Positions 2,766 to 48,263 of a DNA stretch of 64,000 nucleotides are shown here, piece by piece. Source of the DNA: Rhizobiaceae bacterium. Lineage in GTDB: Bacteria > Pseudomonadota > Alphaproteobacteria > Rhizobiales > Rhizobiaceae. The translations under genes and the position numbers were made by a program. The stretch covers positions 378,809 to 442,808 of the forward strand of contig CBDAPT010000008.1 of the NCBI GenBank assembly GCA_965198665.1. The letters run 5' to 3'. Under the pieces are notes generated by a model. That model was not told the DNA's origin. It worked only from the letters and a program-made list of their open reading frames with translations, and did not search any database. Each line of letters begins with the position of its first letter. The stretch's first letter is position 1.

Positions 2766-2774
2766 ACAACAATT

Positions 2775-13818: not shown

Positions 13819-14273
13819 AAGTTGGACTGTTATTCGGAACAGAAACAGGCAATGCCGAATTGCTGTGCGATGATATCGAAGAAGAATTGGGAAGCGATTT
13901 CGAGTGTGAGATTGCTGATCTTGGAGACATTGCGCCGGATGATTTGACCGCTGATCGCTTCTACATCATTGTTACGTCGACGTATGGCAACGGCGATCTG
14001 CCGACAAACGCTACCGATTTCTTCGATGCGCTGGACGAACAGCGTCCTGATCTCACCGGTATTCGTTTCGCAATATTCGGACTGGGTGACCAGGTCTTTG
14101 ACCAGACCTTCAATCAGGGTTCCGAACGACTGAAAGATTTGCTGGTTGAATGCAAGGCCACCATGGTGGGCGAGCGGGGATTGCATGATGCATCTTCCGG
14201 CGAGGCACCGGAAGACATAGCGCTTCCCTGGCTACAAACGGTATTGCCTGAACTTGTTTCGGAGGCTGCATGA
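13815..14273 (+). CDS. Flavodoxin
   Basis: 152 aa. MKVGLLFGTETGNAE FMN-phosphate loop and STYGNGDLP. ATGA overlap with the reductase gene. Confidence 0.8.
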   Translation: MKVGLLFGTETGNAELLCDDIEEELGSDFECEIADLGDIAPDDLTADRFYIIVTSTYGNGDLPTNATDFFDALDEQRPDLTGIRFAIFGLGDQVFDQTFNQGSERLKDLLVECKATMVGERGLHDASSGEAPEDIALPWLQTVLPELVSEAA

Positions 14274-16752: not shown

Positions 16753-16826
16753 AATTGACCTCAGAATTCGGCCATTAGTTGTTTTCATCCCGCGAGATTC
16801 GTGGTTTCATCCATGACAATAAGAAC

Positions 16827-17868
16827 AAGGAGATGGCATGAATGGGGTGTGAGCGGTCATGCATCCCGACTCGGATAGAGTGCTGGGAGAGGCGGATAGG
16901 CTGCAGGCTGGATGTCATCTTAGGGCATTGCGACCCTGTAAAGGAGATTACCCGCCGCCTGTATCTGAACGACCAGCGTGAGGCCCGGTTCGGTCCGGTG
17001 ACCTCGTATAGGAGTTTGGCGTGGCCGTTCACACCCTTGTCAGGGTTCCGCCGCTCACCAACGGGAGAAGTTTAGCCATGTCCTTTATCGGTGTCGATCT
17101 TCACACGACGTCTTTCACGGTCTGCCGGCTTGAAGCTGACGGCAGCGAGATATTTGAAACCTACCAGCTGGCAGCGGCCGATCTGGAACGGTTCTGCCTG
17201 AGCCTTGATGCGGACGACGAGATTGCCGTGGAGGCGACGGGCAATTCGGCCTGGTTTCGTGACGAGGTGGTCGCTTGCGTCGGCCGTGTTGTCGTGGTCA
17301 ACCCGAGGCAGTTCGGCGTGATCCGCAAGTCGGTGAAGAAGACGGACAGGAACGATGCCCGGGCACTGGCCTTCTTCCTGTCGAAGGACATGCTGCCCGA
17401 GACGCGTGTGAAGACGGTTGCCGAGAGCGAGTTGGCGTCACTCACCCACACGCGCGATCTTCTGGTCAAGCAGCGCACCCGGCTCATCAACAAGATCCAT
17501 GCGCTGCACACGCGCCACGGCGTCAAGCTGAAGAAGGAAAGCCTGGGCTCGAAGCGGCGGCTCAATGCTCTGGAGGTCGGCCGGTTCTCGACACTGGAAC
17601 AGGTCGAGTTGAAGGCCCTGCGCGACCAGGCGCTGAGGCTTATGGCGACGATTGGCGAACTGGACGGTGCGATCGAAGAGGCCGCCCGGGAACTGGATGG
17701 CTACGACGGCCTCGTCTCAATCAAGGGCATCGGTCCGCGCTCGGCGGCCGTGCTCCTGTCGGGGATCGGCAACGTCGATGACTTCGAGGACGCCGACAAG
17801 CTGGCTGCCTATGTGGGCATCGTCCCGCGCGTCAGCCAGTCGAACGAAACCGACAACCGGGGGCGGAT
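16827..17868 (+). mobile_element. IS110-group element, copy B, 3'-truncated by IS21
   Basis: Appears identical to copies A and C from AAGGAGATGG... up to ...CAACCGGGGGCGGAT, where the IS21 terminal TGTCAATG... begins. Confidence 0.85.
17078..17868 (+). pseudogene. Truncated IS110 transposase (first ~263 codons)
   Basis: Same translation as copies A and C up to ...ETDNRGRI. After that the ORF reads into IS21 sequence. Confidence 0.85.
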
Positions 17869-17988: not shown

Positions 17989-18723
17989 TCAGGATTGAGT
18001 TTTTTGTTTTTTGCTTTGAGCAAACCGGTATGATGCATTCCCGGTTTCTATAATGGTGCAATGATGGGTAATTCGGTCCAGCAGTGCGGTTGTCATCTTT
18101 GCATCTGCGAAGACCTGCGTCCATTCCCCGAACTCCAGGTTGGTTGTAATGATGACGCTTGTCTTCTCGTACAGTTTGCTGATCAGATGGAACAGTAGCG
18201 CTCCGCCGGACTTTGGGAACGGAATATAGCCGAGTTCATCAATAATGACGCAATCCAGTGCGCATAATTGCCGTACGATCCTTGCGGTATTTCCCTCTGC
18301 CTGTTCACTGATCAGCGCATTGATCAGGTCGACAGCATTGAAGAACCGAATTCTCTTGCCGTGATTAACAAGCGTTGTTCCAAGAGCAATGGCAATGTGG
18401 GATTTTCCAGTTCCCGTTCCACCAACCAGAATCAGATTATGTGCATCGGCAATAAACTGTCCGGAACACAAGGGTTCAATCTGTGTTCGGGTTACAGCCG
18501 CCGCATCATAATCGAAGGTGGCAAAGTCCTTGTGATGAGGGAAGTTTGCACTGCGCATTTGATACCGGACCGAACGCACCCTTCGTTCCACGGTCTCTGC
18601 CTCTATCAACTGCTTTATCGCCGTGGCCAGGTTTGGCGGCTGACGTGCACTTAGCAAGTCCTGTGCGCAAGAGGCCATTCCATGCAATCTCAACCCTGCC
18701 AGCTGTTCAATGAGGCCGTTCAT
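17989..18723 (-). CDS. istB: IS21 helper ATPase IstB
   Basis: 244 aa with Walker [12 protein letters not shown] and Walker B VIIDELGY. Overlaps the istA stop. Confidence 0.9.
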
Positions 18724-20219
18724 GCCGTCACCTCATACAGAGCTTCATAACGCTTGCAGTCGGCTTGCGGGACAGTTGAGATCAGAGGATAATTGCCGGT
18801 TTCGCTCAATGGCGTAATTTCCGGTTCTTGCAATTGATTAATCAGATTGATGATGGCAGGAAGACGCAAGGTATTTTGCTTTACAGCCAGCTTACAGGCC
18901 TGCTCGATCACCTCTGTTCCATGCTTGTGTGCCAGCAGCAGAAGATCGACAAAATACCGGTCCCCTCCCTTGTCCTGCATGTAGTGATCCCGGATCGTCA
19001 TCATAACATTTGGCAATTGCCAATCCACGAAAGGGGCGCCATTTCTTAAGGCACCGGGTTTGCGATCCAGCAATGGCACATAGTGCCAGGGCTCAAAGTA
19101 ACTGATATTGCGGGTAAAACGACGTTTGTGCCCGGCAATTACTTCATGATCCGCAACAAGAACTATTCGCCCGGCATAGGCTCGCAGCGAGACTTGTTGC
19201 CCGGCAAACTGACAAGGCACGCTGTAACGATTGTTATCATACTGAACCAGACAGGTGGAACGCACCCGCACACTCTTTTCGATGTACCCGTCAAAGGGTT
19301 GGCCGAGAGGGCGAAGCGCGGCAACCTCTTCTGCAAAAACCGCATCAATTGTGCGATCCTGCATCCCGGGATGCGCACGTTCGCCAAGTTCTTGACAACG
19401 CCGCTCCAGATGTTCATTCAAGCTATCAAGGTCATCAAAGGAAAGCTTGGGCGTAAACACCTCTGCTCGTATGAACCCGACCTGGTTCTCAACCTGGCCC
19501 TTCTCCCAGCCAGATGCCGGCGTACAGGCGACCGGCTCCATAACGTAATGGTTCATACAGGCAAGGAAACGTGCATGGAACATTCGTTCCTTCGAACGCG
19601 ATACATAGGTGACCATAGTCTTGGGATTGTCGATGATGACACGGCGGGGAACTCCCCCGTAAAAGGCCAACGCACGCACAAAAGCATCAAGTACCATCTC
19701 CTGCACTTCGCTGGGATAGGCGTATACAAACGGCTTGCGGCTGTGGCAAAGCCGGAAGTGGGCAATCTTCACTTTCTGGGGTACTCCGCCCAGAACAACG
19801 TGTTCCTCACTCCAGTCAAACTGAACCGCATCACCTGCCGCAAACTGCAGGGGAACAAATGCTCCTCTGGACCCCGAACTCGAATGCTTCAACTCGCGGA
19901 TAAGTCGCTGGGTCGTTGAATAAGACCCTTTATAGCCTTCCCCAACCAGTTCCTCGTAAAGCTTCTTGCCTGTGCGACGCTCCCGGCGCGGCAGCTTCAG
20001 ATCATGCTCCCAGCGTGACCGAAGCTTGTCTGCATGCTTCCCAAGCAATTTATGCAAGGGTGCAGGAGTGTGGCGCTGATAACGAGGCTCCCCATCATCC
20101 TTCAAATACTTCCTGATCGTATTGCGCGAAACTCCCGTCTCACGACTTACCTGTCGAATGCTCTTTTCACCGCGCAATATCCAGCAACGGACCTTCAAAA
20201 CCGTTTCCATTTGTAACAC
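18720..20219 (-). CDS. istA: IS21 transposase IstA
   Basis: 499 aa with an N-terminal HTH ([20 protein letters not shown]) and a DDE region (QFDWSE...IIDNPKT...GWEKGQVEN). Confidence 0.9.
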
Positions 20220-20321
20220 CTGTCTCTTCCTCGCGCTTAAAACGCGAAACCTAAAACAGGCGGGTCAATTTTACTTGAAAATTACCCACCCAAGTGGGTC
20301 AAATTTGCATGGAAATTCACA

Positions 20322-20526
20322 CTCCATGATAGAGCAGATTCGCAGCGTCGTTGTACGCATGAAAAACGAGGGTGTTGCTGTGGTTCTGGTGGAGCAGCGG
20401 GTTGATGCAGTATTGTCAATCGCGGATCGTGTAACCTTTATTGAAAACGGCTACAGCCGCGACACAATAGATGCTTCGGTTTTGAAAACCGACAACTCAT
20501 TGCTTGAGCGATATGTCGGCGTGTGA
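20322..20526 (+). pseudogene. 3' remnant of a LivF/LivG-type ABC ATPase gene, 5'-truncated at the IS21 end
   Basis: ...IEQIRSVVVRMKNEGVAVVLVEQRVDAVLSIADRVTFIENG... is the D-loop/H-loop C-terminus of a branched-chain-type ABC ATPase. No upstream part is present. Confidence 0.6.
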
Positions 20527-20596: not shown

Positions 20597-21217
20597 TCAG
20601 CTTAAGGCATCACTTGTTTTGAAGTCGACACCTGCATCACGCATCTGTGCCATCGCCGCATCAAGCGATCCATCCAGATCAATGCCACGGCACCCATCGG
20701 TTATCACGGTGGCTGCAAAACCCTGTTTCACCGCGTCAAGCGCTGAGTAACAGACACAGAAATCGGTTGCCAAACCTACCAGATAGACTTCGCTTGTACC
20801 TCGCTCCCGCAGGTAACCGGCCAGACCTGTTTCAGTTTTCTTGTCATTTTCAAAGAACGCCGAATAGCTGTCGATTGCCGCACGGAAACCTTTTCGGATA
20901 ATCATATCAGCCCGGTTTATTTCCAGATCCGGATGAAATTCCGAGCCTTTACTTCCAATCACGCAGTGGGTGGGCCACAGGACCTGGGGTCCATAGGGCA
21001 TATCAATCAAAGAAAACGGTTCCGGCCCTTCATGATTGGCCGCGAAGGATGAATGGTCGCCGGGATGCCAATCCTGTGTCAGCACCCTCACCTGAAACCT
21101 CTCCTGCAAAGCGTTGCTGATCGGTACCACCGCATCGCCGTCATCGACGGCAAGCGCACCGCCCGGACAGAAATCGTTCTGGATATCAATCATCAGAAGT
21201 GCTGCATTGTCTGTCAT
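20597..21217 (-). CDS. pncA: Nicotinamidase/pyrazinamidase (isochorismatase family)
   Basis: MTDNAALLMIDIQNDFCPGGALAV...QDWHP..H.SF...ATDFCV. Carries the PncA catalytic Asp/Lys/Cys and metal-site pattern. Confidence 0.8.
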   Translation of the reverse strand: MTDNAALLMIDIQNDFCPGGALAVDDGDAVVPISNALQERFQVRVLTQDWHPGDHSSFAANHEGPEPFSLIDMPYGPQVLWPTHCVIGSKGSEFHPDLEINRADMIIRKGFRAAIDSYSAFFENDKKTETGLAGYLRERGTSEVYLVGLATDFCVCYSALDAVKQGFAATVITDGCRGIDLDGSLDAAMAQMRDAGVDFKTSDALS

Positions 21218-21334
21218 AATCTCTTCCAACCCTCATCAACCGGTCAAACTTCTCGGTCTATTAAAATACACTTTCGGCTGTGGAATCAAACAACCGTTTC
21301 GCAATATCCAATTACGCAGATAGCAGCCTTGTGG

Positions 21335-22156
21335 CTAGCCCACAAACGCGCGCTCAACGACAAAGGTTGCCGGTTTGTTATTTGCTCCCTCCTGCAAACC
21401 AAGCCCCTCAAGAATTGCTTTGGTCTCATTGAGCATTTCCATGGAGCCGCAAATCATGCCGCGATCGGTTTCCGGCGTGATCGGGTCAACACCCAGATCA
21501 CTGAATACCTTGCCGCTTCTCAACAAGTCGGTGATCCGGCCGGTATGGGGATAATCCTCACGGGTAACCGTGCAGTAATGCGTCAGGCGCCCTGGCGCCA
21601 GTTCACCAACCAGGGGATCATTTGCAATCTGCCCGATCAGATCCTGTCCGTATTTCAACTCAGCGACTTCGCGACAGGTATGAGTGAGGATCACCTTTTC
21701 AAATTTCTCGTAAGTTTCCGGGTCGCGTATCAGCGAAGCAAAAGGGGCAATTCCGGTGCCTGTCGAAAACATCCACAGGCGTTTTCCTGGCAACAGGGCA
21801 TCATTGACAAGCGTGCCGGTCGGTTTTTTTCTGATGAGAATCGTATCACCCGGCTTGATGCGCTGAAGATGTTCGGTGAGGGGTCCGCCGGGTATCTTGA
21901 TCGAGAAAAACTCAAGGGTGTCATCCCAGCTCGGGGAGGCAACTGAATAGGCACGGTAAACCGGTTTTTCAGAATTCGGCAGGCCAATCATTACGAACTC
22001 GCCAGACCGGAACCTCAGGCTTGCGGGCCGGGTTGTGCGAAACCGGAAAAGCCTGTCGGTGTAGTGCTGGACTTCGGTAACGGTTTCTCCAAATACGCCC
22101 TGCGGTATATTGAATTCGCCTTGCAAGTGCTCGTCGGGTCCGACAACTCTCATCAC
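21335..22156 (-). CDS. fpr: Ferredoxin-NADP+ reductase (bacterial Fpr type)
   Basis: 273 aa with [35 protein letters not shown] and a C-terminal ...FVVERAFV. Its start overlaps the stop of the ferredoxin gene upstream of it. Confidence 0.85.
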
Positions 22157-22497
22157 AATGCTCCAGATTCCGCTGCCGGTGCTTCAGAAAGCAGTTGCAG
22201 TTTTTCGGGTTTGTCTGCCCAGATTTCACAATCGGCGCAGGCTTCTCCCTGTTCAGTTATGTTTGGCCAGATTTCCGCGTACTTCCGGTTCAGTTCGATA
22301 CAGAAATCAGCCCCGCTGATTGTATCCGGCTTGATTGCATCAACCGGACACTCGGGCTCACACACTGCGCAGTCAATACACTCGTCGGGATGGATTACCA
22401 CCATGTTCCCGCCTTCAAAGAAACAGTCGACAGGGCAAACCTCAACACAGTCCTTGTATTTGCAGTTGATGCAGCCATCGGTAACCAGGAAAGGCAT
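22153..22497 (-). CDS. fdxA: 7Fe (Azotobacter FdI-type) ferredoxin
   Basis: [29 protein letters not shown]...[22 protein letters not shown] set the start at ATG 22497; the 205-aa ORF extension would overlap the enamidase gene. Confidence 0.85.
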
Positions 22498-22884
22498 GCA
22501 TGAAAACCCGCAGGAGTATCTAGGATGGCAGATAAACTGGTGATCAAAAACATTGGCCTGATTCTTTCTGGCAGGATCGAGGAGCCGATTCTCGATGGCA
22601 ACTGCCTGATCGCCATTGACGGCAAAATCCATTCCTGGGGCAATGAAAAAGATTTGGACACGGCGGATGCGAAAACCGTCATTGATGCACAGGGCGTGAC
22701 ACTCGCACCGGGGCTCATAGACAGTCACATTCATCCGGTTGTTGGAGACTACACTCCAAGGCAGCAGCAATTACACTGGATCGATTCTACCCTGCATGGC
22801 GGCGTGACTACGCTGATTTCGGCTGGCGAAGTCCACATGCCGGGGCGTCCAAAAGATGTGGTTGGCCTAAAAGCGATGGCAATA

Positions 22885-23951
22885 GAGCGTGTTCGCATCA
22901 CGTGAATTCACAGCCGACTGCCCTGAAGAAATTCCGGCACTCCATTGGCGTGAACATATGGCAGACCTCTCCGATTGCCTTCCAGACATCATCGAAGGTT
23001 CTGGCGCCTGCCTTCCTCAGATGAGCCTTGAGCTTCGAAAAGGCCATTTCAATGGCATTGAGATCTGGGGAATATTTCGGCAGGAACAAAAACCATGCGC
23101 CGATATCTCGCAAGATCTGCTCGGCTTTTTCGCTCTTGTGAGCGGCTAGGTGGTCAAGGATTACGACATCTCTCTTTTCCAGTTCTGGCGCCAACTGTGT
23201 CTCAACATAAATCTCAAAGATTTCTTTGGTCATGGCCCGGTCAATAACCCAGGGCGCAACCAGTCCATGACTGCGCAGGCCTGCGATAAGTGTCTGCTTC
23301 TTCCAGTGGCCATGAGGGACAAAATCTATGAGGCGCTCTCCTGTTGGGGCCCATCCAGTTTGCTTGGCCATTTTGGTGTTTGTGGACGTCTCATCAATGA
23401 AGACAAGTTTTTCAATCGACCGATTCAAAAACGGAACACGCCTTGTCTTCCAGAGTTCGCGGTCTTTTTTCACGTCGATGCGGTGTTGCTCCTTGGCATA
23501 AATAGTCTTTTTTTATGCGACAACCCGAAACTGCGCACAACATGCCAGACAGGCGAATGATGGACATTGAGGTTGAATTTTTCGTTCAGCTCCGCACAAA
23601 GCTTACGGATTGTAATGTCCTTTTGTTCATCAACCCGTTTTCGAAGCCAGTCTTTATAGGGTGAAAGCTTGCCATGGCCTGTTTTTCCCGGGTTATGTTT
23701 TGGAGCAAGCGAGCCAGTTTCACGTTTCAACTTCACCATATCATTCACAAATTTGACGGAGACTTTGAAATGGGCAGCCGTTCCACGATGAGTGTGGCCT
23801 TCTTCTACATGAGCTACAACACGTTTACGCAATTCAATCGGATGGGGCTTGGGCATTGAAAATCCTTGGCTTCGAACCGAATCAGGTCACCCCAATCAGA
23901 ATCATATTCGCGCACGGAAAGAAACTGAATCTACTCGACACAAACACGCTC
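22885..23951 (-). mobile_element. IS630-family insertion sequence, copy 2 (1067 bp)
   Basis: Same IRs as copy 1. TA at 22883-22884 and 23952-23953. Confidence 0.9.
22898..23856 (-). CDS. IS630-family transposase (-1 frameshift at T-run 23508-23514)
   Basis: ORF translations are identical to copy 1. Confidence 0.8.
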
Positions 23952-24789
23952 TAGCCGCCCAGCGCTGGTACGAAAACTTCAGACCCTCCGGGATGAAAGT
24001 TCACGCCGGCGCACCGGTGATTGAGCACGGCATGGTGGAAGAGGATTTCAAGGAACTCGCGGAATCAGGGGTAAAGTTTCTGGGCGAGGTTGGCCTCGGC
24101 ACCGTAAAAGACGGAAAGACTGCAAGCCAGATGGTTGGTTGGGCCAGGAAATACGGCATTCAGAGTACCATCCACACGGGCGGACCTTCTATCCCCGGTT
24201 CCGGATTGATTGACGCTGATATGGTACTGGAAACAGGAACGGATGTGGTTGGCCATATCAATGGCGGTCATTCCGCGTTACCCGATGACCAGATCATCTG
24301 CCTGTGTGAAAACTGCAAGGCTGCGCTGGAAATAGTTCATAACGGAAACGAGCGTGCGGCACTCCTGACGCTGAACACGGCCCGCGAGCTGGACAAACTG
24401 GATCAGCTTATTTTAGGGACAGACGGACCGGCGGGATCCGGTGTGCAACCGCTGGGTATCATACGGATGATTGCCATGCTTTCCAGCCTCGGCAATGTAG
24501 CCGCCGAAACCGCACTGTGCTTTGGCACCGGCAACACTTCGAGGCGCAGGAACCTTGATACGGGCATGATAGAAAACGGCTATTGTGCTGACTTTGTATT
24601 GATGGACCAGGCACAGCATGCACCGGGAAAAGACATCCTGGAATCCATTCAGCTGGGTAATCTTCCCGGCGTTGGTATGACCGTCATAGATGGTGTCGTG
24701 CGCAGCGAGCGAAGCCGCAATACACCCCCGGCGACCAGACTGCCCTGCGTGGTTTAAGTTAAAACACATATGCCACAGGGACATATGTG

Positions 24790-24810
24790 GATGCGCACCC
24801 GCATCGTTTT
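24790..24810 (+). terminator. Rho-independent terminator after the enamidase gene
   Basis: GATGCG-cacc-CGCATC followed by GTTTT. Preceded by a second hairpin, CACATATG-n9-CATATGTG (24765-24789). Confidence 0.55.
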
Positions 24811-24816
24811 GACAGT

Positions 24817-25278
24817 TCAGGTTAATTTTTTCAGGATTTTAAGAAACGTTTTTTGTTCCTGAGCGGTAAGCGGCTGCAGGGTTTTTGCGGTAATCACCTT
24901 ACCGGCTTTTTTCATTTCTTCTATCAACACAGTTCCGGCCTCTGTAAGGGACACCAATAACCGTCGCTTGTCATTGGGATCAGGTCGGGACTTTACCAGC
25001 CCGCGATGAATCAGGCGATCAACCACTCCCTTGATAGTCGCCACATCCATTCCCGCAAGACGTCCGAGATGGTTTTGTGAACACTCCCCATTGTCGGATA
25101 TGCGCACAAGTGCCGAGAATTGAGTAGGCGTGATGTTGTCTATTGTGTTGCTTTGAAAAATAACGCTATGGCGCTGGCTGGCCAATCGAAGCAGAAATCC
25201 TACCTGGTTATCGAGATCATATCTGTCTTCTGCATGACTCATTGTTTGTTCCATATGCCACGTTCGTGCGATTTTCAT
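24817..25278 (-). CDS. MarR-family transcriptional regulator
   Basis: 153 aa with a winged-helix core ...ITPTQFSALVRISDNGECSQNHLGRLAGMDVATIKGVVDRLIHRGLV...DKRRLLVSLTEAG. Confidence 0.8.
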   Translation of the reverse strand: MKIARTWHMEQTMSHAEDRYDLDNQVGFLLRLASQRHSVIFQSNTIDNITPTQFSALVRISDNGECSQNHLGRLAGMDVATIKGVVDRLIHRGLVKSRPDPNDKRRLLVSLTEAGTVLIEEMKKAGKVITAKTLQPLTAQEQKTFLKILKKLT

Positions 25279-25466
25279 TTGGCGGATATTGCCGACTAAA
25301 CGAAAAACGCAAATACTCTACAGATGCTCTGCGCTCGGTGTCCGTTTATCCCGGAATAAAAGGTGGCTTCGATAGCGAATTATAATTGGAACCACCAAAA
25401 CAAATCAAACAGATATTGAATGACAACACGTCATGGAAAAATTCGACATAAGTCTGCGTTGACAAC

Positions 25467-26045
25467 TCAACGCAATCCGTCGTTGCCCTCTGCCTCTTCA
25501 TGGGTAAGGCCGCCGACCCGTGGAAGCGGGCGCCCGGAATCCGTCACGGCAATTGCAACCATTATTTCATTGGCTCTTGGTGCATCATTTATCCGCACTT
25601 CCATGCCATCAAAATGGGACCGGACATAGGCGGCGTCCTTATGACCCAGAGGAACATCCAGCGGTTGTCCCATGGAGCCCATTTTCTTGGAGGATGGAAC
25701 CAGAGCCGCCCCTTTCTCCACAGCGGCGCGAAGTGGTTTGCCCAATCTGGGATGCAGGATTGCCGCAGCATGTTCGAGCTCTCCGTTTTCGCCGACCATC
25801 GCTGCCTTGCCATAACTTTCAGCTTCCTGTGGACTGATACCAAGTGCGTCGACGCATTTTTGACCCAGCAAGCCACCCAGTTCCTCACCAGCACTCATGA
25901 GTTCTTCCAGGTCTTCCTGATACACACCCGCAAACGGATTTTCGATAACGGCAATTGCCGCCGCGCGCCGTGTCGGTGGCGATATTTGCCGACCGATTTC
26001 AATATGGGTATCTTCGACCACAACCGATATCTTCCGGATTTTCAT
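25467..26045 (-). CDS. Amino-acid-synthesis family protein (DUF1185/PF06684-like), paralogue 2
   Basis: 192 aa. Shares YGKA.VGE.GELEHAA, VPS.KK.G and YVRSHFD..EV.I.DAPR.NE blocks with the upstream paralogue. Confidence 0.6.
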   Translation of the reverse strand: MKIRKISVVVEDTHIEIGRQISPPTRRAAAIAVIENPFAGVYQEDLEELMSAGEELGGLLGQKCVDALGISPQEAESYGKAAMVGENGELEHAAAILHPRLGKPLRAAVEKGAALVPSSKKMGSMGQPLDVPLGHKDAAYVRSHFDGMEVRINDAPRANEIMVAIAVTDSGRPLPRVGGLTHEEAEGNDGLR

Positions 26046-26061
26046 TGTCTCTCTCCTAACC

Positions 26062-26646
26062 CTATTTCAGTCCATCTTCACCGATCACATCCGCAGCCGC
26101 CAGCCCGCCGGCACGATTGTGAATACGGGCACCTGTCGTCATCGCCAAAATCACGATCATTTCGTTCTTTCTGGGGGCATGGTTGATACCAACCTCAATC
26201 GAATCAAAATGCGATCGCACATATGATGCATTGGAATGGGTAACCGGCACGTCAATTCTCACGCCCGGGCCTCCCACTTTTTTTGCGGACGGAACAATTG
26301 CCTTGGAATTGGGAAGCAGTTCCCGCATGGAATAACCGCCAGGGGCATGCCACAGGGCTGCGTGTTCGAGTTCTCCGTCCTCTCCGACAACCGAAGCCTT
26401 GCCATATGCCTCCACGCCTTCGGGCCCGCAGCCGATAGCAGTGATCAGTTGTTCAGCCATTTTCAGTCCCAGCGGCTTCAGATCGTCCATGAAGCCCGCA
26501 ATATCCTCCACATAACTTCCGGCATACGGGTTCGTAATAACAGTTGCGATATAGGCCCGCCTGTACGGTGTCTGCGACACAGGCCCGCCCTCATGATAGA
26601 TCTCATCCACGGAAATGATGGTTTTTCGTACAATTACTTCAGGCAT
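26062..26646 (-). CDS. Amino-acid-synthesis family protein (DUF1185/PF06684-like), paralogue 1
   Basis: 194 aa, clearly paralogous to 25467-26045. Overlaps the stop of the UPF0280-like gene. Confidence 0.6.
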   Translation of the reverse strand: MPEVIVRKTIISVDEIYHEGGPVSQTPYRRAYIATVITNPYAGSYVEDIAGFMDDLKPLGLKMAEQLITAIGCGPEGVEAYGKASVVGEDGELEHAALWHAPGGYSMRELLPNSKAIVPSAKKVGGPGVRIDVPVTHSNASYVRSHFDSIEVGINHAPRKNEMIVILAMTTGARIHNRAGGLAAADVIGEDGLK

Positions 26647-27583
26647 GAACTTGTCCCGCAGGTTCTGAATTAATGTGTGAATTGGTACCTGTATGCCCCG
26701 CGATCAGATCTGATTTGCCCGGTGTGACCACCCGATGCATGCCCTGGAGCACGAGGTGTGCTAAATGTATTATCCCTGATCGCCTCATTTTTTCGGCTAG
26801 CCGGCAACCCTCTGTGAGTGCATCCTGCTTTTCAAAAGCATCCAGACGGGCAACACCGGTTGTTACCAGCATGTCGCCCAGATCACTGTCCGGGTTAAGT
26901 TCCCGGGCAGGTGCTCGTTCTATCTTGCGTGATGACGGCAGATTGACCGCATTGGCAATCAGTGTCGCAGCCGCGTCAGCCAGTGCGGCGTTAGCAGCGA
27001 ACACGGTCACTGCATCGGCAATGCCAAGGGAATGGCTGCGCCCGGCCCAGCCGCTGGTGGCTACGCCACCGACATCATCTTCGGCGCGAATGGTAGCTCT
27101 GGAACAAATCCTGCCAGTTGCGAGGTCGGAACAAATGCCGACTGTGAACGATTGATTTTCACTAAGCCTCACGGATATATCACCGCCATTATTCACAAAT
27201 ATCCGCCGGGCTGAGACCTTCCCGGCAACACATTGCGTCAGATGATCCGCCACAGATCCCGCTACTGCAATCATAGGTGTGACGAAGTGTTTTTCTGAGA
27301 ATACCGATACCGCATCTAGCATTCTGGCAGCCACCGGACTGTCCGGCACCCATTGACGCGTTGTCACCGGGAGGCGCAACACATCCAACTCCCCACAGAG
27401 ATCGGAGAGTATCGGCTCAAATGAAGCAGCCGCTATCCTGAATGCTTTTTGCCGGTCAGGTTCATCGTGTGTATCAACACCCATGAACAGATCAATGGGG
27501 CCATGACGAAGGAACAGGAGATCACCCTTTTCTGATAACGATATTTGCGGAGCATCCTGAAGCATCGTTACTTTAACTCCCAC
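26639..27583 (-). CDS. UPF0280-family protein (possibly ApbE-like fold)
   Basis: 314-aa soluble protein whose start overlaps the stop of the hnr-like gene by 11 nt. The family call is from memory of the conserved hnr-UPF0280-DUF1185 gene neighbourhood. Confidence 0.5.
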   Translation of the reverse strand: MGVKVTMLQDAPQISLSEKGDLLFLRHGPIDLFMGVDTHDEPDRQKAFRIAAASFEPILSDLCGELDVLRLPVTTRQWVPDSPVAARMLDAVSVFSEKHFVTPMIAVAGSVADHLTQCVAGKVSARRIFVNNGGDISVRLSENQSFTVGICSDLATGRICSRATIRAEDDVGGVATSGWAGRSHSLGIADAVTVFAANAALADAAATLIANAVNLPSSRKIERAPARELNPDSDLGDMLVTTGVARLDAFEKQDALTEGCRLAEKMRRSGIIHLAHLVLQGMHRVVTPGKSDLIAGHTGTNSHINSEPAGQVHA

Positions 27584-29066
27584 CCTTCACAGGCCATGGA
27601 TTATCCAAATGGTTGCCGACGATCCGCTGGCCGCTCAATATGTGATCTTGCTGTTTTCCGGCGTTGGATGCGATCGCTTGATCAAGACTGACAACATGAT
27701 CCATTTGACCGCCGAGCGCTTCATAGTTTTCAAGACTCATGGTGAATTCAATCGGTGCAACCAGGGCCGGCGTGGGTACATAGCCAAACGAATTTTCGGG
27801 CATTCTCGAAACATCAGCCATCACTGTAATACCACCGCCCGGCCAACGGTAGGTCGGCGCACCTCCGCAGGTCACGCTGGTGATCGTCTCCTGGGCCGAA
27901 CGGGTGAGTTTTACGGGATTTTCGGTGACGCCTGCTCTCAACGAACCGCCTGCACCGCCCATAAACATCACCGTGGCAAGTGCAGGTTCACAATTCTCGT
28001 CAATCCGTTTGATCGACGGTCCGAGTCTGTCCGGAACACTCTTTTCTACCGGGATCAGTTCTTCGTTGAGTTCAAAATATGCGAATTGCTCACCAGTCGT
28101 GGACACCATCAGCAGGCTTTGACCGGGACTTGCTTTCTGGGGGTTGAATTCACCAAGGATGTCCAGCGGATCCAAAAGGTCGGTACCGCCCCACCCCGTG
28201 CCTGATCCTGCCACCTGGAAATACCGTCCGGGTGTCGAACGCCGCCCCTTAATCCTGATCCCGGTTTCCGGCCATCCGATAACCTTTCCGGCCTGATGTT
28301 CGGACATGACACCGGTAATGTGGTCATCAACCACAACAACCTCATCGACAAGCCCTTTCCATTGGGAAGCAAACATGCCGACCGTTGCCGAGCCGCAACC
28401 CACCCGCATCCGCTGTTCGGTAACACCATTGACGATGGGTGCCTTGTTCGCCTGTACCACCACCTCAGCCCCGTCATCTATAGACAGTTCCACCGGCTCC
28501 CCGTTACACAGGGCAAGGAGGGTCGCGCATGTTACACGGCCTTCTTTTTTGCCGCCGCCGGTCAAATGATGCACACCACCGAGCGATAACATCTGGGAGC
28601 CGTATTCCGCGGTAGTGACATGACCGACCGGTTCGCCCTGCGCACGCACCAGAGAGCGTTCCGGGCCCAGATGTCTGTCGGTATCAATCTTTACCTTGGC
28701 ACCGCAGTAGCTGAATATCCCCTCGGTAACGACGGTTACCGTGTCGATGCCATTTACCTTGCTAGAGACAATGAACGGTGCTGGCTTATAGTCGGGATAG
28801 GTCGTTCCCGCACCAATTGCCGAAATAAAACGGTCTTTTGGGCGGACAAGTTCACCATCCCAGTTTTCATCACCGTCTTGAAACGGCACCAGCGGCGCCA
28901 TTTCGCTGACACGGTTTTCAATGACGGTGAGGGGATCCAGACGGACGAGTTCACCGCCCTCATTGGCATAGCGATCACATGCACCTGATCTGCCATCAGC
29001 GATGTAACACATGACGGGACATGCATCACATCTGATCTTGTCGGTCGGTTTTGCTTTTTCTACCAA
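27573..29066 (-). CDS. 6-hydroxynicotinate-reductase-like protein
   Basis: 497 aa. The N-terminal Cys cluster IRCDACPVMCYIADGRSGACDRYAN matches proteins I remember as annotated 6-hydroxynicotinate reductase. Lies directly downstream of the Mo-hydroxylase genes. Confidence 0.6.
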   Translation of the reverse strand: MVEKAKPTDKIRCDACPVMCYIADGRSGACDRYANEGGELVRLDPLTVIENRVSEMAPLVPFQDGDENWDGELVRPKDRFISAIGAGTTYPDYKPAPFIVSSKVNGIDTVTVVTEGIFSYCGAKVKIDTDRHLGPERSLVRAQGEPVGHVTTAEYGSQMLSLGGVHHLTGGGKKEGRVTCATLLALCNGEPVELSIDDGAEVVVQANKAPIVNGVTEQRMRVGCGSATVGMFASQWKGLVDEVVVVDDHITGVMSEHQAGKVIGWPETGIRIKGRRSTPGRYFQVAGSGTGWGGTDLLDPLDILGEFNPQKASPGQSLLMVSTTGEQFAYFELNEELIPVEKSVPDRLGPSIKRIDENCEPALATVMFMGGAGGSLRAGVTENPVKLTRSAQETITSVTCGGAPTYRWPGGGITVMADVSRMPENSFGYVPTPALVAPIEFTMSLENYEALGGQMDHVVSLDQAIASNAGKQQDHILSGQRIVGNHLDNPWPVKGGS

Positions 29067-29067
29067 T

Positions 29068-31809
29068 TTATTGAATCCCGTTACCGTCTTTCAGTGCCGC
29101 CAGTACCTTGTCCGGGGTGGCTGGCAAATCCGTAATCAAAACCCCTGTCGCATCCCGTATCGCATTGATAATGGCTGGCGCTGTCGGAATGAGCACATGC
29201 TCCCCCAACCCCTTGGCTCCGTATGGGCCCTCCGCATCTTCCACCTCGATGATCAGGTTGTGGAATTCGGGAACATCACCAAAAGTCGGGATCAGATAGT
29301 CGTGCAGGTTCTCGGTTTTGCCGGGTGCATAATTTTCCATCAACGCCATGCCAATGCCCTGTGCAACACCGCCTTCGATTTGGCCTTCCACCAACAGGGG
29401 GTTTATTGCTTTACCCACGTCATGGGCTGTAACGATGCGGTCAAGTTTCACCGTACCAAGTCCCGTATCAACCGTGAGTTCCATCATTTGTGCGCCATAT
29501 CCATACATGGCGTAGGGAATGCCCTGCCCTTTTTCATCCAGGGGCTTGGTTGGCGGATCATAGGTTTCTTCCGACATGAAGACATAACCAAGTTCATTTT
29601 CCGGCAATCTGGTCAGATCAATCGATGTGGTTGTTTTGCCCTCGCCCGCTGTTATCATTCCGGCTTCAAAAATCAGTTCGGCGTCATGACTGACATTTGC
29701 TTTTCGCAAAATCTGTCTGCGCAATGCTTCACCTGAAAGCTTCGCGGCCTTGCCGGTAATATAGGTCTGACGGGACGCCGAGGTTTTGCCGCAGTCGGGG
29801 GTGAGATCAGTATCACCATCAATTATCTCTATGCAGTGAACCGGCACACCCAGGCCGTCAGCGGCTATTTGAGCAATGACTGTGTTGGCTCCCTGCCCTA
29901 TGTCCATTGCACCCTGATGCAACACTACGGTGCCATCCTGTCTGATCCCCATACGTACGGTGGACGGGTTCGGCAGCGAGGTGTTGCCGCAACCGTACCA
30001 GCAACTGCCAAGCCCTACACCCTTCCTCATCCCTGATCCGTTTGCTCGCCGGTTATGGCTGGCGGCTTCCTCGCGCGCTTCGTCCCAAAACGGTTTGAGG
30101 GCGTTCAGGCACTCTTCTATGCCTACGCCTTTTTCAAAGACCTGCCCCGTTACCGTCGGCAGTCCGTTCTTCAGGACGTTTCTCAAGCGAAAATCGAGAC
30201 GATCGATGTCTGCCCTGTCAGCGAGCAGGTCAAACGCTACCTCCTGAGCGATTGCCGATTGCGGCACGCCAAATCCGCGAAATGCGCCTGATGGCGGTGT
30301 GTTGGTATGAACCGCAACACTTCTGGCCCGGTAATTCTCGACAAAGTATGGACCCGACGCGTGAACCGGCACGCGGTTTGCGACCGTTGGGCCCCAGCTG
30401 GCATACGCTCCGGTGTTGAACACCCCTTCAAAGTCGAAGCCGGTAATTTTTCCGTCTTCAGTACAGCCAATTTTCAAGGCTATCTCTGAAGGGTGCCGCT
30501 TGGTTGTCGACTGCATGGATTCTGATCGATCATAGGTGATAAACGCCGGTTTCCCGAGTTTCCATGCGGCGAGCGCGACATAGGGCTGAAACGACAGATC
30601 CAGTTTTGATCCGAACCCGCCGCCACATGCAGATGGCATTACCCGGATATCATCGAGTTGCAGGCCCATGATCTCGGCAAGGCATTCGCGATCCATCTGT
30701 GCAGCCTGCGTGCATCCAAACAACTCGAGCCGGTCCCCGTTGCGGATGCAGTGCCCGGCTTCAAGTTCGATGTACCCATGTTCGACAAACGGCGTGGAGG
30801 TTCTGACTTCCACCTGGTGACTGGATGACGCCAGGCCGTCGCCAACGCAACCCTTTTCGACAAAACCCTCAACGAGAATATTTTCTCTGCGATCATGATG
30901 CAGATCGATCAGGTTTCCACCCATTGCATCTCTGGGAAGCAGGGCATGATCGGTTGGCTGCCAATCAATCGGCAGGCTTTCCACTTTCAAAGCTTTCACG
31001 GTTTCATACGCGCCAACCACTGCCGCTACAGCTTCTCCCCGGTAGATAGCGACTTCCTCCGCAAATACCGGTTGATCCGCAAACGGAGGAATAACGCCAA
31101 AGCAGTTTTTGCCCGGGATATCTGTTGCATCAAGAAACGCTTCAACACCACGCGTTTCTGAAACGAACCTGTCCTTGTCACCAATCGTGAATTTGGCATG
31201 GTGATGCGGACTGCGGACTACCCGGACATAAAGCGCATCTTTCGGGACAATGTCAGCGCCATACATCAAGGTGCCGTCGACTTTTGGCCTGCCATCCAGA
31301 TGTCGCACCGATGTCCCGACCCCACATCCTGCCTGCGGAGTTACCTCGGCAGCAACGAAATTGTTTGCATGCATCACCGCTTCGACAATTTTGCGATAGC
31401 CTGTGCATCGGCACAAAACACCACCCAGGGCATCCTCCACCTCGTGTTTTGAAGGCTCCGGGTTGTGATCGAGCAATGCCTTTGCGGACATTAACATACC
31501 CGGCGTGCATATTCCGCACTGGGCTGCCCCGTAATGCAGAAAGCTCTGTTGCAGTTTTGTCAGGGTACCGTCATCGGAAAGGCTTTCCAGTGTCTCCATT
31601 CTGGATCCGTCGATCTGTCCGGTACTGGTGGGGCAACTGCAGGCGATATCGCCGTCAATGAGAACGCTGCAGGAACCGCAATCACCGGCATTGCAGCCAA
31701 CCTTGGTTGCAGTGAGGTTCATGTCATCACGAAGAAAATCCGACAGCCGTTTTACCGGGTCAATCGTGGCATGATGTTCATCGCCATTCAGGTGAAAATT
31801 GATTTTCAT
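29068..31809 (-). CDS. Molybdopterin hydroxylase (xanthine/nicotinate dehydrogenase family) with an N-terminal fused [2Fe-2S] subunit
   Basis: 913 aa. The N-terminus has GCNAGDCGSCSV and GAAQCGICTPG...CRCTGY (two 2Fe-2S sites), followed by aldehyde-oxidase/xanthine-dehydrogenase MoCo domains (GGGFG, ...GLGE...). Confidence 0.85.
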   Translation of the reverse strand: MKINFHLNGDEHHATIDPVKRLSDFLRDDMNLTATKVGCNAGDCGSCSVLIDGDIACSCPTSTGQIDGSRMETLESLSDDGTLTKLQQSFLHYGAAQCGICTPGMLMSAKALLDHNPEPSKHEVEDALGGVLCRCTGYRKIVEAVMHANNFVAAEVTPQAGCGVGTSVRHLDGRPKVDGTLMYGADIVPKDALYVRVVRSPHHHAKFTIGDKDRFVSETRGVEAFLDATDIPGKNCFGVIPPFADQPVFAEEVAIYRGEAVAAVVGAYETVKALKVESLPIDWQPTDHALLPRDAMGGNLIDLHHDRRENILVEGFVEKGCVGDGLASSSHQVEVRTSTPFVEHGYIELEAGHCIRNGDRLELFGCTQAAQMDRECLAEIMGLQLDDIRVMPSACGGGFGSKLDLSFQPYVALAAWKLGKPAFITYDRSESMQSTTKRHPSEIALKIGCTEDGKITGFDFEGVFNTGAYASWGPTVANRVPVHASGPYFVENYRARSVAVHTNTPPSGAFRGFGVPQSAIAQEVAFDLLADRADIDRLDFRLRNVLKNGLPTVTGQVFEKGVGIEECLNALKPFWDEAREEAASHNRRANGSGMRKGVGLGSCWYGCGNTSLPNPSTVRMGIRQDGTVVLHQGAMDIGQGANTVIAQIAADGLGVPVHCIEIIDGDTDLTPDCGKTSASRQTYITGKAAKLSGEALRRQILRKANVSHDAELIFEAGMITAGEGKTTTSIDLTRLPENELGYVFMSEETYDPPTKPLDEKGQGIPYAMYGYGAQMMELTVDTGLGTVKLDRIVTAHDVGKAINPLLVEGQIEGGVAQGIGMALMENYAPGKTENLHDYLIPTFGDVPEFHNLIIEVEDAEGPYGAKGLGEHVLIPTAPAIINAIRDATGVLITDLPATPDKVLAALKDGNGIQ

Positions 31810-31811
31810 TG

Positions 31812-32654
31812 CTATGGGTTCCCCGCCAATGAGCCCAGCACCCGGATTGCAAGCTCCTTGCTCGCCAGCGTTCGGTAGGCCCCGGTGGAACGTATGTCAT
31901 CAATGGGTGACAGCGAGGCAAAATGTTCATCGGCCACATCCGTCACGAGATCACGCGACAGCGCTTTGCCGACCAGCATAGCCTCCAGAGCCGGCAATCG
32001 TGTTGCGACGGCGGAGCACGAACCGACACTGATTTTTGCATCCTCGATGATGCCGTTTTCTCCGACAGCCAGACGGGCAGCCAACATTGAAATCGAAATC
32101 ACCAGATATTTTCGTGCGCCGAGTTTCAGAAACGCAGACCTGCCCAGGGATTGTTCAGCGGGAATCATAAGGCCGACAACCATTTCATTCGGCTTCAGAT
32201 TTGTCTGGCGATTGCCCAGGATAAACTCTTCAAGCGGGAGTTCACGTTCTCCATCGACAGAGGCAATCTTGACGATTGCGCCGAGTGTGAGCAGAGGCGG
32301 AACGCCATCAGCGGCCGGAGATGCATTGCAGATGTTACCGACAACGGTCGCCCGATTTTGGATCTGTACTGAACCGACTTCTTTTGCCGACAGCTTCAGG
32401 CCTTCAAAAGCTGGCGGAAAATCATGTGCGATTACTTCTGACCAGGTGACAAGCGCCCCAATATGCCAGTTGCCCTGGGTGTCCTTCTCGATATTGCGCA
32501 GGGAAGATATTCCGGAAATATCCAGCACATTGAAATCGACTTCTTTCTCCCCGAGAGATGGATAAAAATCCGTGCCACCAGCAAGAATTTTCCAATCTTG
32601 CGAGTTCAACAAGGTAACCGCGCGGTGCAATTTTTCGGGTTTGCTAAACTGCAT
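31812..32654 (-). CDS. FAD-binding subunit of the Mo-hydroxylase (CoxM/XdhB-like)
   Basis: MQFSKPEKLHRAVTLL...ILAGGTDFYP... is FAD_binding_5-type. GAGGTGG RBS lies 6 nt before ATG 32654. 2-nt gap to the next gene. Confidence 0.8.
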   Translation of the reverse strand: MQFSKPEKLHRAVTLLNSQDWKILAGGTDFYPSLGEKEVDFNVLDISGISSLRNIEKDTQGNWHIGALVTWSEVIAHDFPPAFEGLKLSAKEVGSVQIQNRATVVGNICNASPAADGVPPLLTLGAIVKIASVDGERELPLEEFILGNRQTNLKPNEMVVGLMIPAEQSLGRSAFLKLGARKYLVISISMLAARLAVGENGIIEDAKISVGSCSAVATRLPALEAMLVGKALSRDLVTDVADEHFASLSPIDDIRSTGAYRTLASKELAIRVLGSLAGNP

Positions 32655-32834
32655 TGCACGCCACCTCAAGCCACGCGGAACTGAAATGCCATATCGAAAT
32701 TTTCAAGCTCCTCAACCATCTAATCTGGAACCTGTTCCTTAACCTCCTGTCACCAGCAGGTTATTGTTAGCATACAAATAAAAATTTTGTTTGTAAACAT
32801 CGTTAGGGGAGCTCATTTCAAGACGCATGGAGCA

Positions 32835-33952: not shown

Positions 33953-35391
33953 TTATAACCCGCACATAGGTGGGCGCCGGTGCTGCCAGGGCAATGCTAT
34001 CTCCAACTGCCGGGCGAGTTGCAGAAGGGTGAGGTCGTCCCCGACCCGGCCGGCAAAATGGATGCCGATCGGCAGTCTGTTTTCGCTCTCATATAGTGGG
34101 ACAGACATGGCGGGCTGGCTGGTAACGTTGAAAATTTCCGGATAAGGGGCAAATTTCCATGCTTCGTCCATCCAGGTTTCAATGCTGCGATTAGCCGCTT
34201 GTGTAAAGACACCGGTTTCAGGCGGGGGACCGGTTACCACCGGCGACATAATGACATCAATACCGTTCATCGAAACGGTCATTTGTCTTTGCAGCCGTGT
34301 CAGTTGCGCCTGTGCGCGGGCGACTTCAACGGAATTTGTTGCCCGCGCCTGTTCCATGGCTCATTGTATGACCGGACCCAATTCTCCATCTCGGGGTGGC
34401 CGGCCCAAGGTTTCGGCATGTTCTTCTACCAGCACCGTCAATTCATTGGCCCAGAATACCGAGGCAGCATCACACGCGTCACAATTCGGCGGCCATTCCC
34501 AGGGGATAACAGTATGTCCCAGTTCTTGCAGCAGCCGGGCGGTAGCTTCAAGACAAGAGGCCATGTCTGCGTCCGGCTTGATGCCGGTGGGCGAATGGGG
34601 GACCATTGCAATTGAGAGACCGGCAGGCGCTTCATCAAGCCGGTCAAGAAACCCGGCTCTGTTTTCTTGATAGGCGCGCGGTGAGCCGGTTTCCGGACCG
34701 GTGGTAGCGTCAAGCAATGCGGCGGAATCCCTGACCGTCCAACTGACAGCATGATCGCAATTAAGGCCATTGACGAGCGGCCCCAGATGAGACCCGGTGG
34801 CGACCAGCCCGCTGGTTGGCTTGAACCCGAACACTCCGCAGCAGGCTGCGGGAACCCTAATTGAACCGCCAGAATCCGTCGCATGTGCCAGGGGCACAAT
34901 ACCTGCGGCCACCGCACAAGCGGCACCACCACTGGATCCGCCGGGCGTGAGGCTCAAGTCCCAGGGATTGTTGGCCGGGCCATATAATTCAGGTTCGCAG
35001 CCATAATCGGTTGCAAATTCCGGGGTATTGGTACGACCAAATACAACCAGCCCCGCTTCATGCCACCGTTGCGCCAGCAGACTGCTCTCCGCCGACGCCG
35101 GTGCGTCGTCAAAAAACGGCAGGCGTGTTTTAGCGGCATGCCCTTTACCTGGACATTGATATCCTTCGCGGGAAAAGGAACACCTGCCAAAGGCATTTCA
35201 GGTGACTCCGATGCGGCTGCTTTGTAAGCCAGTTCATCATAGCGACTTACGATTGCATTGAGTTGGGGATTGTGGATGTCTATCTCACGAAAGACAGCAT
35301 CCAAAAGTTCAGACGGTTTGATCTTTTTGTGGCGAACCAGTTTCGCCATAGCCACCGCGTCGAGTTTTCGAAATTCGCTTCTGCTCAGCAT
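33953..35391 (-). pseudogene. Amidase-signature (GatA-like) amidase, inactivated by a homopolymer frameshift and an in-frame TGA
   Basis: Three consecutive ORF pieces. The AS motif [32 protein letters not shown] is present. Reading T6 (A6 at 35111-35116 on +) as T7 restores ...RFFDDAPASAESSLLAQRWHEAGLVVFGRTNTPEF.... TGA at 34361-34363 is in frame between ...GPVIQ and AMEQARA.... Confidence 0.75.
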
Positions 35392-48042: not shown

Positions 48043-48082
48043 GATTTCCCTCCCAGAAAGTGTTGATGCCGTCACAAATTCG

Positions 48083-48216: not shown

Positions 48217-48263
48217 CCCTTGGAACAAGGACTTACCCTCGGCAGGCGCAGCAGGAGACTATT

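Follow-up and report, generated by a model that had tools for sequence, protein, structure and literature searches.

A likely inactivated copy of the gene cluster for nicotinate degradation through tetrahydro-oxonicotinate in an insertion sequence-rich Rhizobiaceae genome

We analysed a stretch of 64,000 nucleotides from a Rhizobiaceae bacterium (GenBank assembly GCA_965198665.1, contig CBDAPT010000008.1, positions 378,809 to 442,808), hereafter the 64-kb window, which carries homologues of the three signature enzymes of nicotinate fermentation in Eubacterium barkeri, namely, a molybdenum hydroxylase resembling nicotinate dehydrogenase (NdhFSLM), a 6-hydroxynicotinate reductase homologue (Hnr) and an enamidase (Ena). 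The same locus encodes a nicotinamidase (PncA), a ferredoxin (FdxA), a ferredoxin-NADP(H) reductase (FNR) of the bacterial FPR type, a MarR-family regulator, and members of the UPF0280 and DUF1185 families. Taken together, the comparisons described below make it likely that the locus represents a widespread cluster for nicotinate degradation through 1,4,5,6-tetrahydro-6-oxonicotinate (THON), in a copy that was inactivated recently.

Genes were called from lists of the open reading frames (ORFs) of the window together with Pfam and NCBIfam family scans (Table 1). Each gene listed in an earlier sequence-only reading of this DNA lies where that reading had placed it. Its account of the packing also holds: the six genes running from 32654 down to 25467 are spaced by +2, +1, -11, -8 and +16 nt, and the FNR start (GTG at 22156, or an in-frame ATG at 22153) lies over the fdxA stop codon at 22155-22153. 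The fpr and fdxA genes are translationally coupled through this overlap; the true fdxA start is the ATG at 22497. What the sequence-only reading had overlooked are the UPF0280 and DUF1185 genes in the core of the cluster, and the destruction of an ATP-binding cassette (ABC) transporter.

Table 1. Features of the locus, followed by other insertion sequence (IS) copies and transposase genes in the window
Feature	Position	Strand	Evidence
IS21-family genes: istB 17989-18723, istA 18720-20219	17989..20219	-	NCBIfam transpos_IS21 281 bits, IS21_help_AAA 257 bits, both above cut-off
Remnant of the second ATPase gene of a branched-chain-type ABC transporter	20308..20526	+	tblastn
pncA, nicotinamidase/pyrazinamidase	20597..21229	-	NF008623 equivalog, Pfam Isochorismatase
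fpr, bacterial-type ferredoxin-NADP(H) reductase	21335..22156	-	PDB 2BGI match
fdxA, 7Fe ([3Fe-4S][4Fe-4S]) ferredoxin, 114 aa	22153..22497	-	NF045490, Pfam DUF3470 and Fer4
ena 5' part, codons 1-120	22525..22884	+	spliced product versus 2VUN
IS630-family element, two transposase frames	22885..23951	-	inverted repeats, transpos_IS630
ena 3' part, codons 121-387 and stop	23954..24757	+	spliced product versus 2VUN
MarR-family transcriptional regulator	24817..25278	-	Pfam MarR, 8.8e-15
DUF1185 / 'amino acid synthesis' family, copy 1	25467..26045	-	PF06684, 4.9e-73
DUF1185 family, copy 2	26062..26646	-	PF06684, 2.9e-67
UPF0280 (ApbE-like) family protein	26639..27583	-	NCBIfam NF003322, 320.5 bits versus cut-off 290
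hnr, short-form 6-hydroxynicotinate reductase homologue, 497 aa	27573..29066	-	homologues so named
Nicotinate dehydrogenase-like molybdenum hydroxylase, 913 aa, equivalent to NdhS + NdhL + NdhM	29068..31809	-	PDB 3HRD chains
Flavin adenine dinucleotide (FAD)-binding subunit, NdhF-like; likely start ATG 32654	31812..32669	-	PDB 3HRD_C
IS110 copy	2799-4100		
IS110 copy	16824-17868		
IS110 copy	50011-51312		
IS630 copy	6890-7960		
IS630 copy (the one in ena)	22883-23953		
Another IS110-family transposase	36918-37952		
IS30	45475-46443		

The 913-aa hydroxylase protein combines two kinds of subunit in one chain, with residues 1-150 aligning to small 2Fe-2S subunits and residues 160-913 to molybdenum cofactor (MoCo) subunits. 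In a search of all PDB sequences, the chains of E. barkeri nicotinate dehydrogenase (3HRD) cover it consecutively: NdhS matches residues 2-149 (153 bits), NdhL residues 170-570 (211 bits) and NdhM residues 595-907 (226 bits). The summed score of these chains (D, A and B) is about 590 bits, as against 360 for the best single chain over the same residues, the aldehyde oxidoreductase of D. gigas, about 260 for xanthine dehydrogenases and about 200 at most for carbon monoxide dehydrogenases. No NCBIfam equivalog cut-off was reached for the xanthine, carbon monoxide, aldehyde or 4-hydroxybenzoyl-CoA enzymes. The closest solved relative is, then, the nicotinate dehydrogenase of E. barkeri, and the protein does not cluster with the xanthine or carbon monoxide dehydrogenases, the grouping against which the sequence-only reading had set its assignment. 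In E. barkeri, S, L and M are separate polypeptides and the MoCo subunit is split, whereas here all three correspond to the single fused chain.

The 497-aa protein has more than 8000 homologues, of which the close ones are alphaproteobacterial and, where named by NCBI or JGI, called 6-hydroxynicotinate reductase; PGAP and Prokka name such genes likewise on 26 plasmids from Roseobacteraceae and Rhizobiaceae. Its membership in the Hnr family, claimed earlier from the sequence alone, is borne out by named members from Firmicutes, the 6-hydroxynicotinate reductases of Sporomusa ovata (40% identity, E 7e-112) and Thermanaeromonas toyohensis (42% identity, E 1e-120); for a Bradyrhizobiaceae Hnr homologue compared with the enzyme purified from E. 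barkeri, PMC3511419 likewise reports 42% identity. Neither Pfam nor NCBIfam has a model for the Hnr family, and searches of both, and of the PDB sequences, gave no match. Its AlphaFold2 model is confident (predicted local distance difference test score, pLDDT, 81; predicted template modelling score, pTM, 0.80), and a fold search with this model gave no PDB match at E <= 0.001, the best TM-score being about 0.1, so that the fold offers no mechanistic clue.

Across the Hnr alignment, four cysteines are invariant (C13, C16, C20 and C30, forming CxxCxxxCx9C), and a fifth, C224 within a GCGSA motif, is nearly so. The database entry of an identical protein (P0001, 479 aa) starts 18 codons late; the 497-aa call is to be preferred, as it keeps the invariant C13 and C16 that the later start would delete. 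Longer forms of 508-530 aa, found in Firmicutes, Chloroflexota, Nitrospiraceae and others, carry at the N-terminus a further domain, about 55 aa long, that contains two CxxCxxCxxxC(P) motifs and gives Fer4 Pfam matches, and it is this N-terminal 2x[4Fe-4S] ferredoxin domain that the Hnr of the window and its close relatives lack. The purified enzyme, as described by Alhapel in 2006, reportedly contains a covalent flavin, one [2Fe-2S] and two [4Fe-4S] clusters. The N-terminal domain of the long forms fits this composition; the full cofactor set is not matched in the short form encoded here, where only the CxxCxxxCx9C motif and C224 are present.

The third signature gene, ena, is split by a 1067-bp IS630-family element. 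A duplicated TA borders the element, whose ends are imperfect 28-nt inverted repeats (22883-22910 and 23926-23953) and whose two transposase frames meet at an A7G run; against the transpos_IS630 model (cut-off 100), orfB (22898-23473) scores above the cut-off with 123 bits and orfA (23470-23856) below it with 52 bits. When the element and one TA are removed, an unbroken frame of 387 codons results, with no stop or frameshift. As the earlier reading had proposed for the spliced segment 22525-24757, the similarity of its product to the E. barkeri enamidase (2VUN) is very strong: residues 4-383 align without gaps to residues 3-382 of 2VUN, with 170 of 380 positions identical (45%; E 1.8e-105). 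The stretches kept between the two include HxH, HTGG, HINGG and G(T/N)D(G/A)P, which, from what is known of the amidohydrolase superfamily, we take to be metal-binding motifs. The IS630 element is 100% identical over 1071 bp to the second copy in the window, so the insertion into ena is recent.

These genes belong to a recurrent neighbourhood. When one genome per species was scanned, relatives of Hnr turned up in at least 596 species. The matches listed include Hyphomicrobiales, Rhizobiaceae, Rhodobacterales, Kiloniellaceae and Rhodospirillaceae, Granulosicoccaceae and Marinobacter among the Gammaproteobacteria, and many Terriglobia (Acidobacteriota); the closest one listed, with 80-82% identity, comes from a metagenome-assembled genome (MAG) of Hyphomicrobiales. 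We then took 82 hnr loci (designated by L numbers below), each from a different species, and searched up to 10 kb on either side of hnr with the proteins of the window. UPF0280 was present in 74 loci, DUF1185 in 73, the fused hydroxylase in 67, the FAD subunit in 65, enamidase in 44, MarR in 36 and complete genes for the cognate ABC ATPases in about 32; FNR, PncA and FdxA were found in 14, 5 and 3 loci, respectively. The hydroxylase and ena are also co-located with hnr in the long-form loci L083 and L085. The core cluster is NdhF-NdhSLM-Hnr-UPF0280-DUF1185, with one or two copies of the last, usually joined by Ena and a branched-chain-type ABC transporter. Because this gene order recurs in dozens of species, the arrangement is not due to chance, and hnr, whose neighbourhood the sequence-only reading had wanted surveyed, is widespread with mostly the same neighbours.

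Some relatives depart from this plan at the ring-opening step. Genes for HyuA and HyuB (hydantoinase/oxoprolinase) stand beside the hnr cluster in 10 of the 82 loci (L018, L020, L021, L024, L025, L026, L032, L064, L065 and L081), all of which are among the 38 without enamidase, and are annotated in L087 and L088 as well. This distribution suggests that HyuA/HyuB provide an alternative, ATP-dependent opening of the THON lactam ring. A Rieske oxygenase subunit is added in 13 of the 82 related loci.

In the pathway that this cluster likely encoded, PncA would convert nicotinamide to nicotinate and ammonia, a hydroxylase with FAD, two [2Fe-2S] clusters and MoCo (NdhF plus the fused NdhSLM) would hydroxylate nicotinate to 6-hydroxynicotinate, the short-form Hnr would reduce the latter to THON, and enamidase would open the ring hydrolytically, yielding 2-formylglutarate and ammonia. 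The assignment of nicotinate as the substrate can be questioned: the cluster might act on another N-heterocyclic acid, a pyridine carboxylate or a related lactam, under names transferred from E. barkeri. We regard this as improbable, given that all three signature enzymes co-occur as they do in E. barkeri, even though they are 40-45% identical to the characterised enzymes, a moderate level, and NCBIfam offers no equivalog for them. The substitution of HyuA/HyuB for Ena in ten loci and the added Rieske oxygenase subunit would suit a different substrate, as would the hnr genes of distant lineages, which lie beside other molybdenum hydroxylases, transporters and ring-opening enzymes; on the other hand, a true nicotinamidase is linked to hnr here and in five other loci, and, among bearers of the cluster, strain SG-6C degrades nicotinate via 6-hydroxynicotinate and Azorhizobium caulinodans uses THON. 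Three further points count against the nicotinate assignment. The top PDB match of the FAD subunit, NdhF (3HRD_C, 2e-23), is only marginally ahead of xanthine dehydrogenase; the comparison with E. barkeri Hnr runs via the named Firmicute proteins and is thus indirect, if consistent; and the literature we found holds no biochemical tests of a proteobacterial Hnr, Ena or Ndh from this cluster.

Whatever the cluster once did, the copy in the window has decayed. Of its ABC transporter only a remnant of one ATPase gene is left, the last 72 codons (20308-20523) and the stop, which match residues 161-232 of the 234-residue ATPase of locus L007 with 58% identity; the locus retains no gene for the binding protein, the permeases or the first ATPase. 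IS21 adjoins this remnant on one side and, on the other, an IS110 copy truncated at 17868. With ena split by IS630 and the transporter for uptake lost beside IS21, the pathway very probably no longer functions in this copy, its loss being recent, and the past tense in which the sequence-only reading had couched its route (the organism 'had' it) was apt for a genome with a disrupted ena. Function might persist if a second ena, a HyuAB-type enzyme or another transporter were encoded elsewhere in the genome. None of the remaining cluster genes is shortened relative to its homologues, the insertion is recent, as judged from the identical IS630 copies, and HyuAB does stand in for Ena in some relatives. 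The window, however, contains neither a second ena nor HyuAB nor an intact cognate ABC transporter, and its genes show a general IS-driven decay, so we think continued function quite unlikely. The locus would thus record how an alphaproteobacterial genome rich in IS elements recently lost, through their insertion, a capacity to degrade vitamin B3.

How electrons would reach Hnr is a separate question, which we approached through comparative linkage. A separate ferredoxin makes mechanistic sense for the Hnr of this clade, in which the fused two-[4Fe-4S] domain is missing; low-potential electrons would therefore most likely be delivered by a free ferredoxin, here the adjacent 7Fe FdxA, reduced with NAD(P)H by the coupled FPR. 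The FNR matches the Rhodobacter capsulatus ferredoxin-NADP(H) reductase (2BGI) over nearly its full length (residues 23-273; 359 bits, E 1.3e-106), and fdxA passes the FdxA_Protbact model NF045490 with 137.5 bits against a cut-off of 135. The FNR orthologs near hnr are 51-79% identical and come exclusively from Alphaproteobacteria or from unclassified Pseudomonadota MAGs; two of the 14 matches are partial (63-132 residues), being cut at the edge of the locus. Their positions vary, with four or more different arrangements. The gene lies directly upstream of hnr in Roseibium, Salipiger and Actibacterium and on plasmids of Pseudosulfitobacter and Sagittula, adjoins ena in Xanthobacter and Beijerinckiaceae, and comes after the DUF1185 genes in Roseovarius and a Rhodobacteraceae MAG. 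Neighbouring Fdx-FNR pairs occur in L040, as part of an Fdx-FNR-Ena run, and in L062. For a gene present in one or two copies per multi-megabase genome, linkage to hnr at this frequency appears to be far above chance.

Several observations pull the other way. FdxA orthologs were found in only three loci (L002, L040 and L062); the Acidobacteriota and Granulosicoccaceae loci have neither FNR nor FdxA near hnr, and most of the 82 loci likewise lack both. In the window itself, fdxA-fpr lies outside the six-gene operon on the strand opposite to ena, with ena, the IS element and marR between the pair and hnr. Because the linkage is confined to a minority, the pair is not a core component and could be the housekeeping FdxA/Fpr. 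In that case, fdxA-fpr would serve oxidative stress, Fe-S or general ferredoxin reduction next to a nicotinate/THON cluster whose Hnr draws on any available cellular donor. That fdxA passes a generic proteobacterial FdxA equivalog and the FNR is a typical FPR agrees with such a role; the recurrence of FNR orthologs near hnr in several unrelated gene orders, apparently beyond chance, and the loss of the ferredoxin domain from the short-form Hnr do not. We take the housekeeping explanation seriously while leaning against it. The chain from NAD(P)H through FPR and FdxA to Hnr is plausible from the comparative linkage, and we see the case for it as evenly balanced. Ferredoxin/FNR supply we rate as accessory and lineage-specific, not as a defining feature of the cluster.

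Other ferredoxin-linked genes occur beside the hnr cluster in some relatives, with aldehyde:ferredoxin oxidoreductase in five loci and 2-oxoacid:ferredoxin oxidoreductase in three. L002 has both, together with FdxA (1406-6374), and neighbours of this kind, including glutaryl-CoA-dehydrogenase-like and CoA-transferase genes, are found in L002, L005, L006, L008, L009, L010 and L057. Such neighbours suggest that reduced ferredoxin has other sources there, so the physiological reductant may differ between lineages. Downstream oxidation of an aldehyde or oxo acid could regenerate reduced ferredoxin for Hnr in these organisms.

Of the accessory genes, pncA is a clear family member (NF008623, 223.4 bits against a cut-off of 174), and the MarR protein is likely the regulator of the cluster. 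UPF0280 and DUF1185 are conserved accessory members of the cluster. UPF0280, whose orthologs carry the precomputed Pfam assignment PF27030 (AbpE_bact) and the PGAP name 'UPF0280 family protein', directly follows hnr in all 74 loci that have it, and DUF1185 adjoins hnr in its 73, with two tandem copies in most related loci; the two families thus accompany short-form hnr in about 90% of cases. Both are absent from the four distant-Hnr loci examined (three long-form, one distant short-form), in which hnr stands beside enamidase-like amidohydrolases, molybdenum hydroxylases and other transporters. The closest solved DUF1185 structure is that of an uncharacterised protein, SPO0826 (2QTP, E 4.7e-101). 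The 'amino acid synthesis' label of the family (PF06684) derives from its adjacency to branched-chain-type ABC transporters (PMC2954203); because the transporter in these clusters is a putative nicotinate transporter, the label is probably misleading. We also considered the possibility that UPF0280, being ApbE-like, makes the covalent flavin of Hnr, and did not adopt it, as the long-form loci lack UPF0280. Hnr matches the ApbE target motif only in part, with the near-invariant cysteine of GCGSA at that position.

A bolder reading of the short-form Hnr clade, which spans Alpha- and Gammaproteobacteria and Acidobacteriota, is that it represents an anaerobe's enzyme re-engineered for compatibility with oxygen. 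Under this proposal, the two-[4Fe-4S] domain would have been shed, UPF0280 and DUF1185 would have become obligate, and part of the Alphaproteobacteria would have acquired a dedicated FPR with or without FdxA. We offer it as speculative and, on present comparisons, doubtful. Were it true, ring reduction would be driven by NAD(P)H, the present locus would show the electron supply in its most complete form, and a function would be assigned to two long-standing families of 'unknown function'. More generally, the value of these clusters lies in their uncharacterised accessory parts, UPF0280, DUF1185 and the recurrent FNR, which bear on how aerobes feed low-potential electrons into the reduction of a pyridine ring.

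Genes for the first three enzymes of the pathway were reportedly identified in nine Proteobacteria by Alhapel and co-workers in 2006. The fermentation cluster of E. barkeri (NdhFSLM, Hnr and Ena) is ascribed to that work (Alhapel et al. 2006) in PMC3511419 and PMC9304392, and the same two papers describe the THON route, which is known biochemically from E. barkeri and A. caulinodans, as operating in the aerobe A. caulinodans, with reports from 1989 onwards; there, the product continues through glutarate (PMC3511419). Citing Alhapel 2006, PMC3511419 gives the cluster as conserved in A. caulinodans ORS571 (AZC_2790-2804), Bradyrhizobium japonicum USDA110 (blr3818-3830), Rhodopseudomonas palustris HaA2 (RPB_1658-1671) and strain SG-6C (CSIRO_2076-2090), the last of which grows on nicotinate and on 6-hydroxynicotinate. 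The pathway and its cluster are therefore not new, having been covered in the literature from 1989 to 2012, with the proteobacterial cluster described in 2006 and 2012, and genome pipelines already name the genes. The sequence-only reading had postulated a hybrid route with an oxidative first step, reductive ring saturation and hydrolytic ring opening. Its gene assignments and the three steps of hydroxylation, reduction and ring opening stand; its implied novelty does not, because the THON route and the proteobacterial cluster were already published (PMC3511419, PMC9304392). The ferredoxin/FNR pair is the sole part of that interpretation absent from the literature found, in which PMC3511419 makes no mention of ferredoxin, and it is only in having this pair as neighbours that the locus is slightly unusual.

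Compared with E. barkeri, the locus has the same three enzyme families in one place, but its Hnr lacks the N-terminal 2x[4Fe-4S] domain of the anaerobe forms, UPF0280 and two DUF1185 genes are added, and ena is broken by an IS. Among the window ORFs, which were scanned in part and without a dedicated search, the functions that complete the E. barkeri fermentation to propionate and pyruvate were not apparent: 2-(hydroxymethyl)glutarate dehydrogenase and dehydratase, the B12-dependent 2-methyleneglutarate mutase, methylitaconate isomerase, and the dimethylmalate dehydratase and lyase. With the cluster of the A. caulinodans type the locus shares a proteobacterial host and genes corresponding to UPF0280 and DUF1185. 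This copy differs from the A. caulinodans type in its lost transporter and interrupted ena, in the presence of pncA and fdxA-fpr, which are nearby in a minority of relatives, and in that the window contains no glutarate or glutaryl-CoA genes. Plasmids of Roseobacteraceae (Pseudosulfitobacter pDSM107133_b and Sagittula stellata E-37) share hnr, UPF0280, two DUF1185 genes, MarR, the fused molybdenum hydroxylase with its FAD subunit and an hnr-linked 'ferredoxin--NADP reductase'. In these plasmids, however, the FNR gene lies directly upstream of hnr, fdxA is missing, HyuA/HyuB take the place of enamidase, and both an additional Rieske oxygenase subunit and an intact ABC transporter are encoded.

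The nic cluster of Pseudomonas putida (NicAB, NicC and NicX) acts on the same substrate and gives the same first product, 6-hydroxynicotinate (PMC3511419), but proceeds by oxidative decarboxylation and dioxygenolytic ring cleavage, whereas the window encodes a hydroxylase with an FAD subunit, Hnr and Ena. No candidate for NicC (6-hydroxynicotinate 3-monooxygenase) or NicX (2,5-dihydroxypyridine dioxygenase) was seen in the ORF lists or the scanned subset of ORFs, in which no dedicated search was made for either. A paper on nicotinate and the root microbiota (PMC13510662) concerns the P. putida-type nicAB cluster.

Beyond the cluster, the window contains at least eight IS copies of five kinds, several of which are 99.9-100% identical, and one IS21 is inserted into an IS110. 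Some other genes are damaged as well: a benzoate-CoA ligase gene (6078-6890; TIGR02262, profile positions 4-281 of 508) is cut by the second IS630, and an amidase-signature-family gene (33953-34957) is present as two adjacent ORF fragments, likely a pseudogene. The window as a whole points to recent IS expansion accompanied by gene decay. BoxC and BoxB of the benzoyl-CoA epoxidase pathway pass their NCBIfam cut-offs in the segment 9440-14273, in which boxB is followed by genes for a GltD-like NAD(P)-binding flavoprotein (12571-13818) and a MioC-like flavodoxin (13815-14273) and no canonical BoxA is encoded; the GltD-like and MioC-like genes may form a variant electron supply for the epoxidase. 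The sole flavin monooxygenase found in the scanned ORFs of the window is a trimethylamine monooxygenase (46705-48228; NF058570, 800 bits against a cut-off of 675), which hints at a marine, methylamine-using lifestyle.

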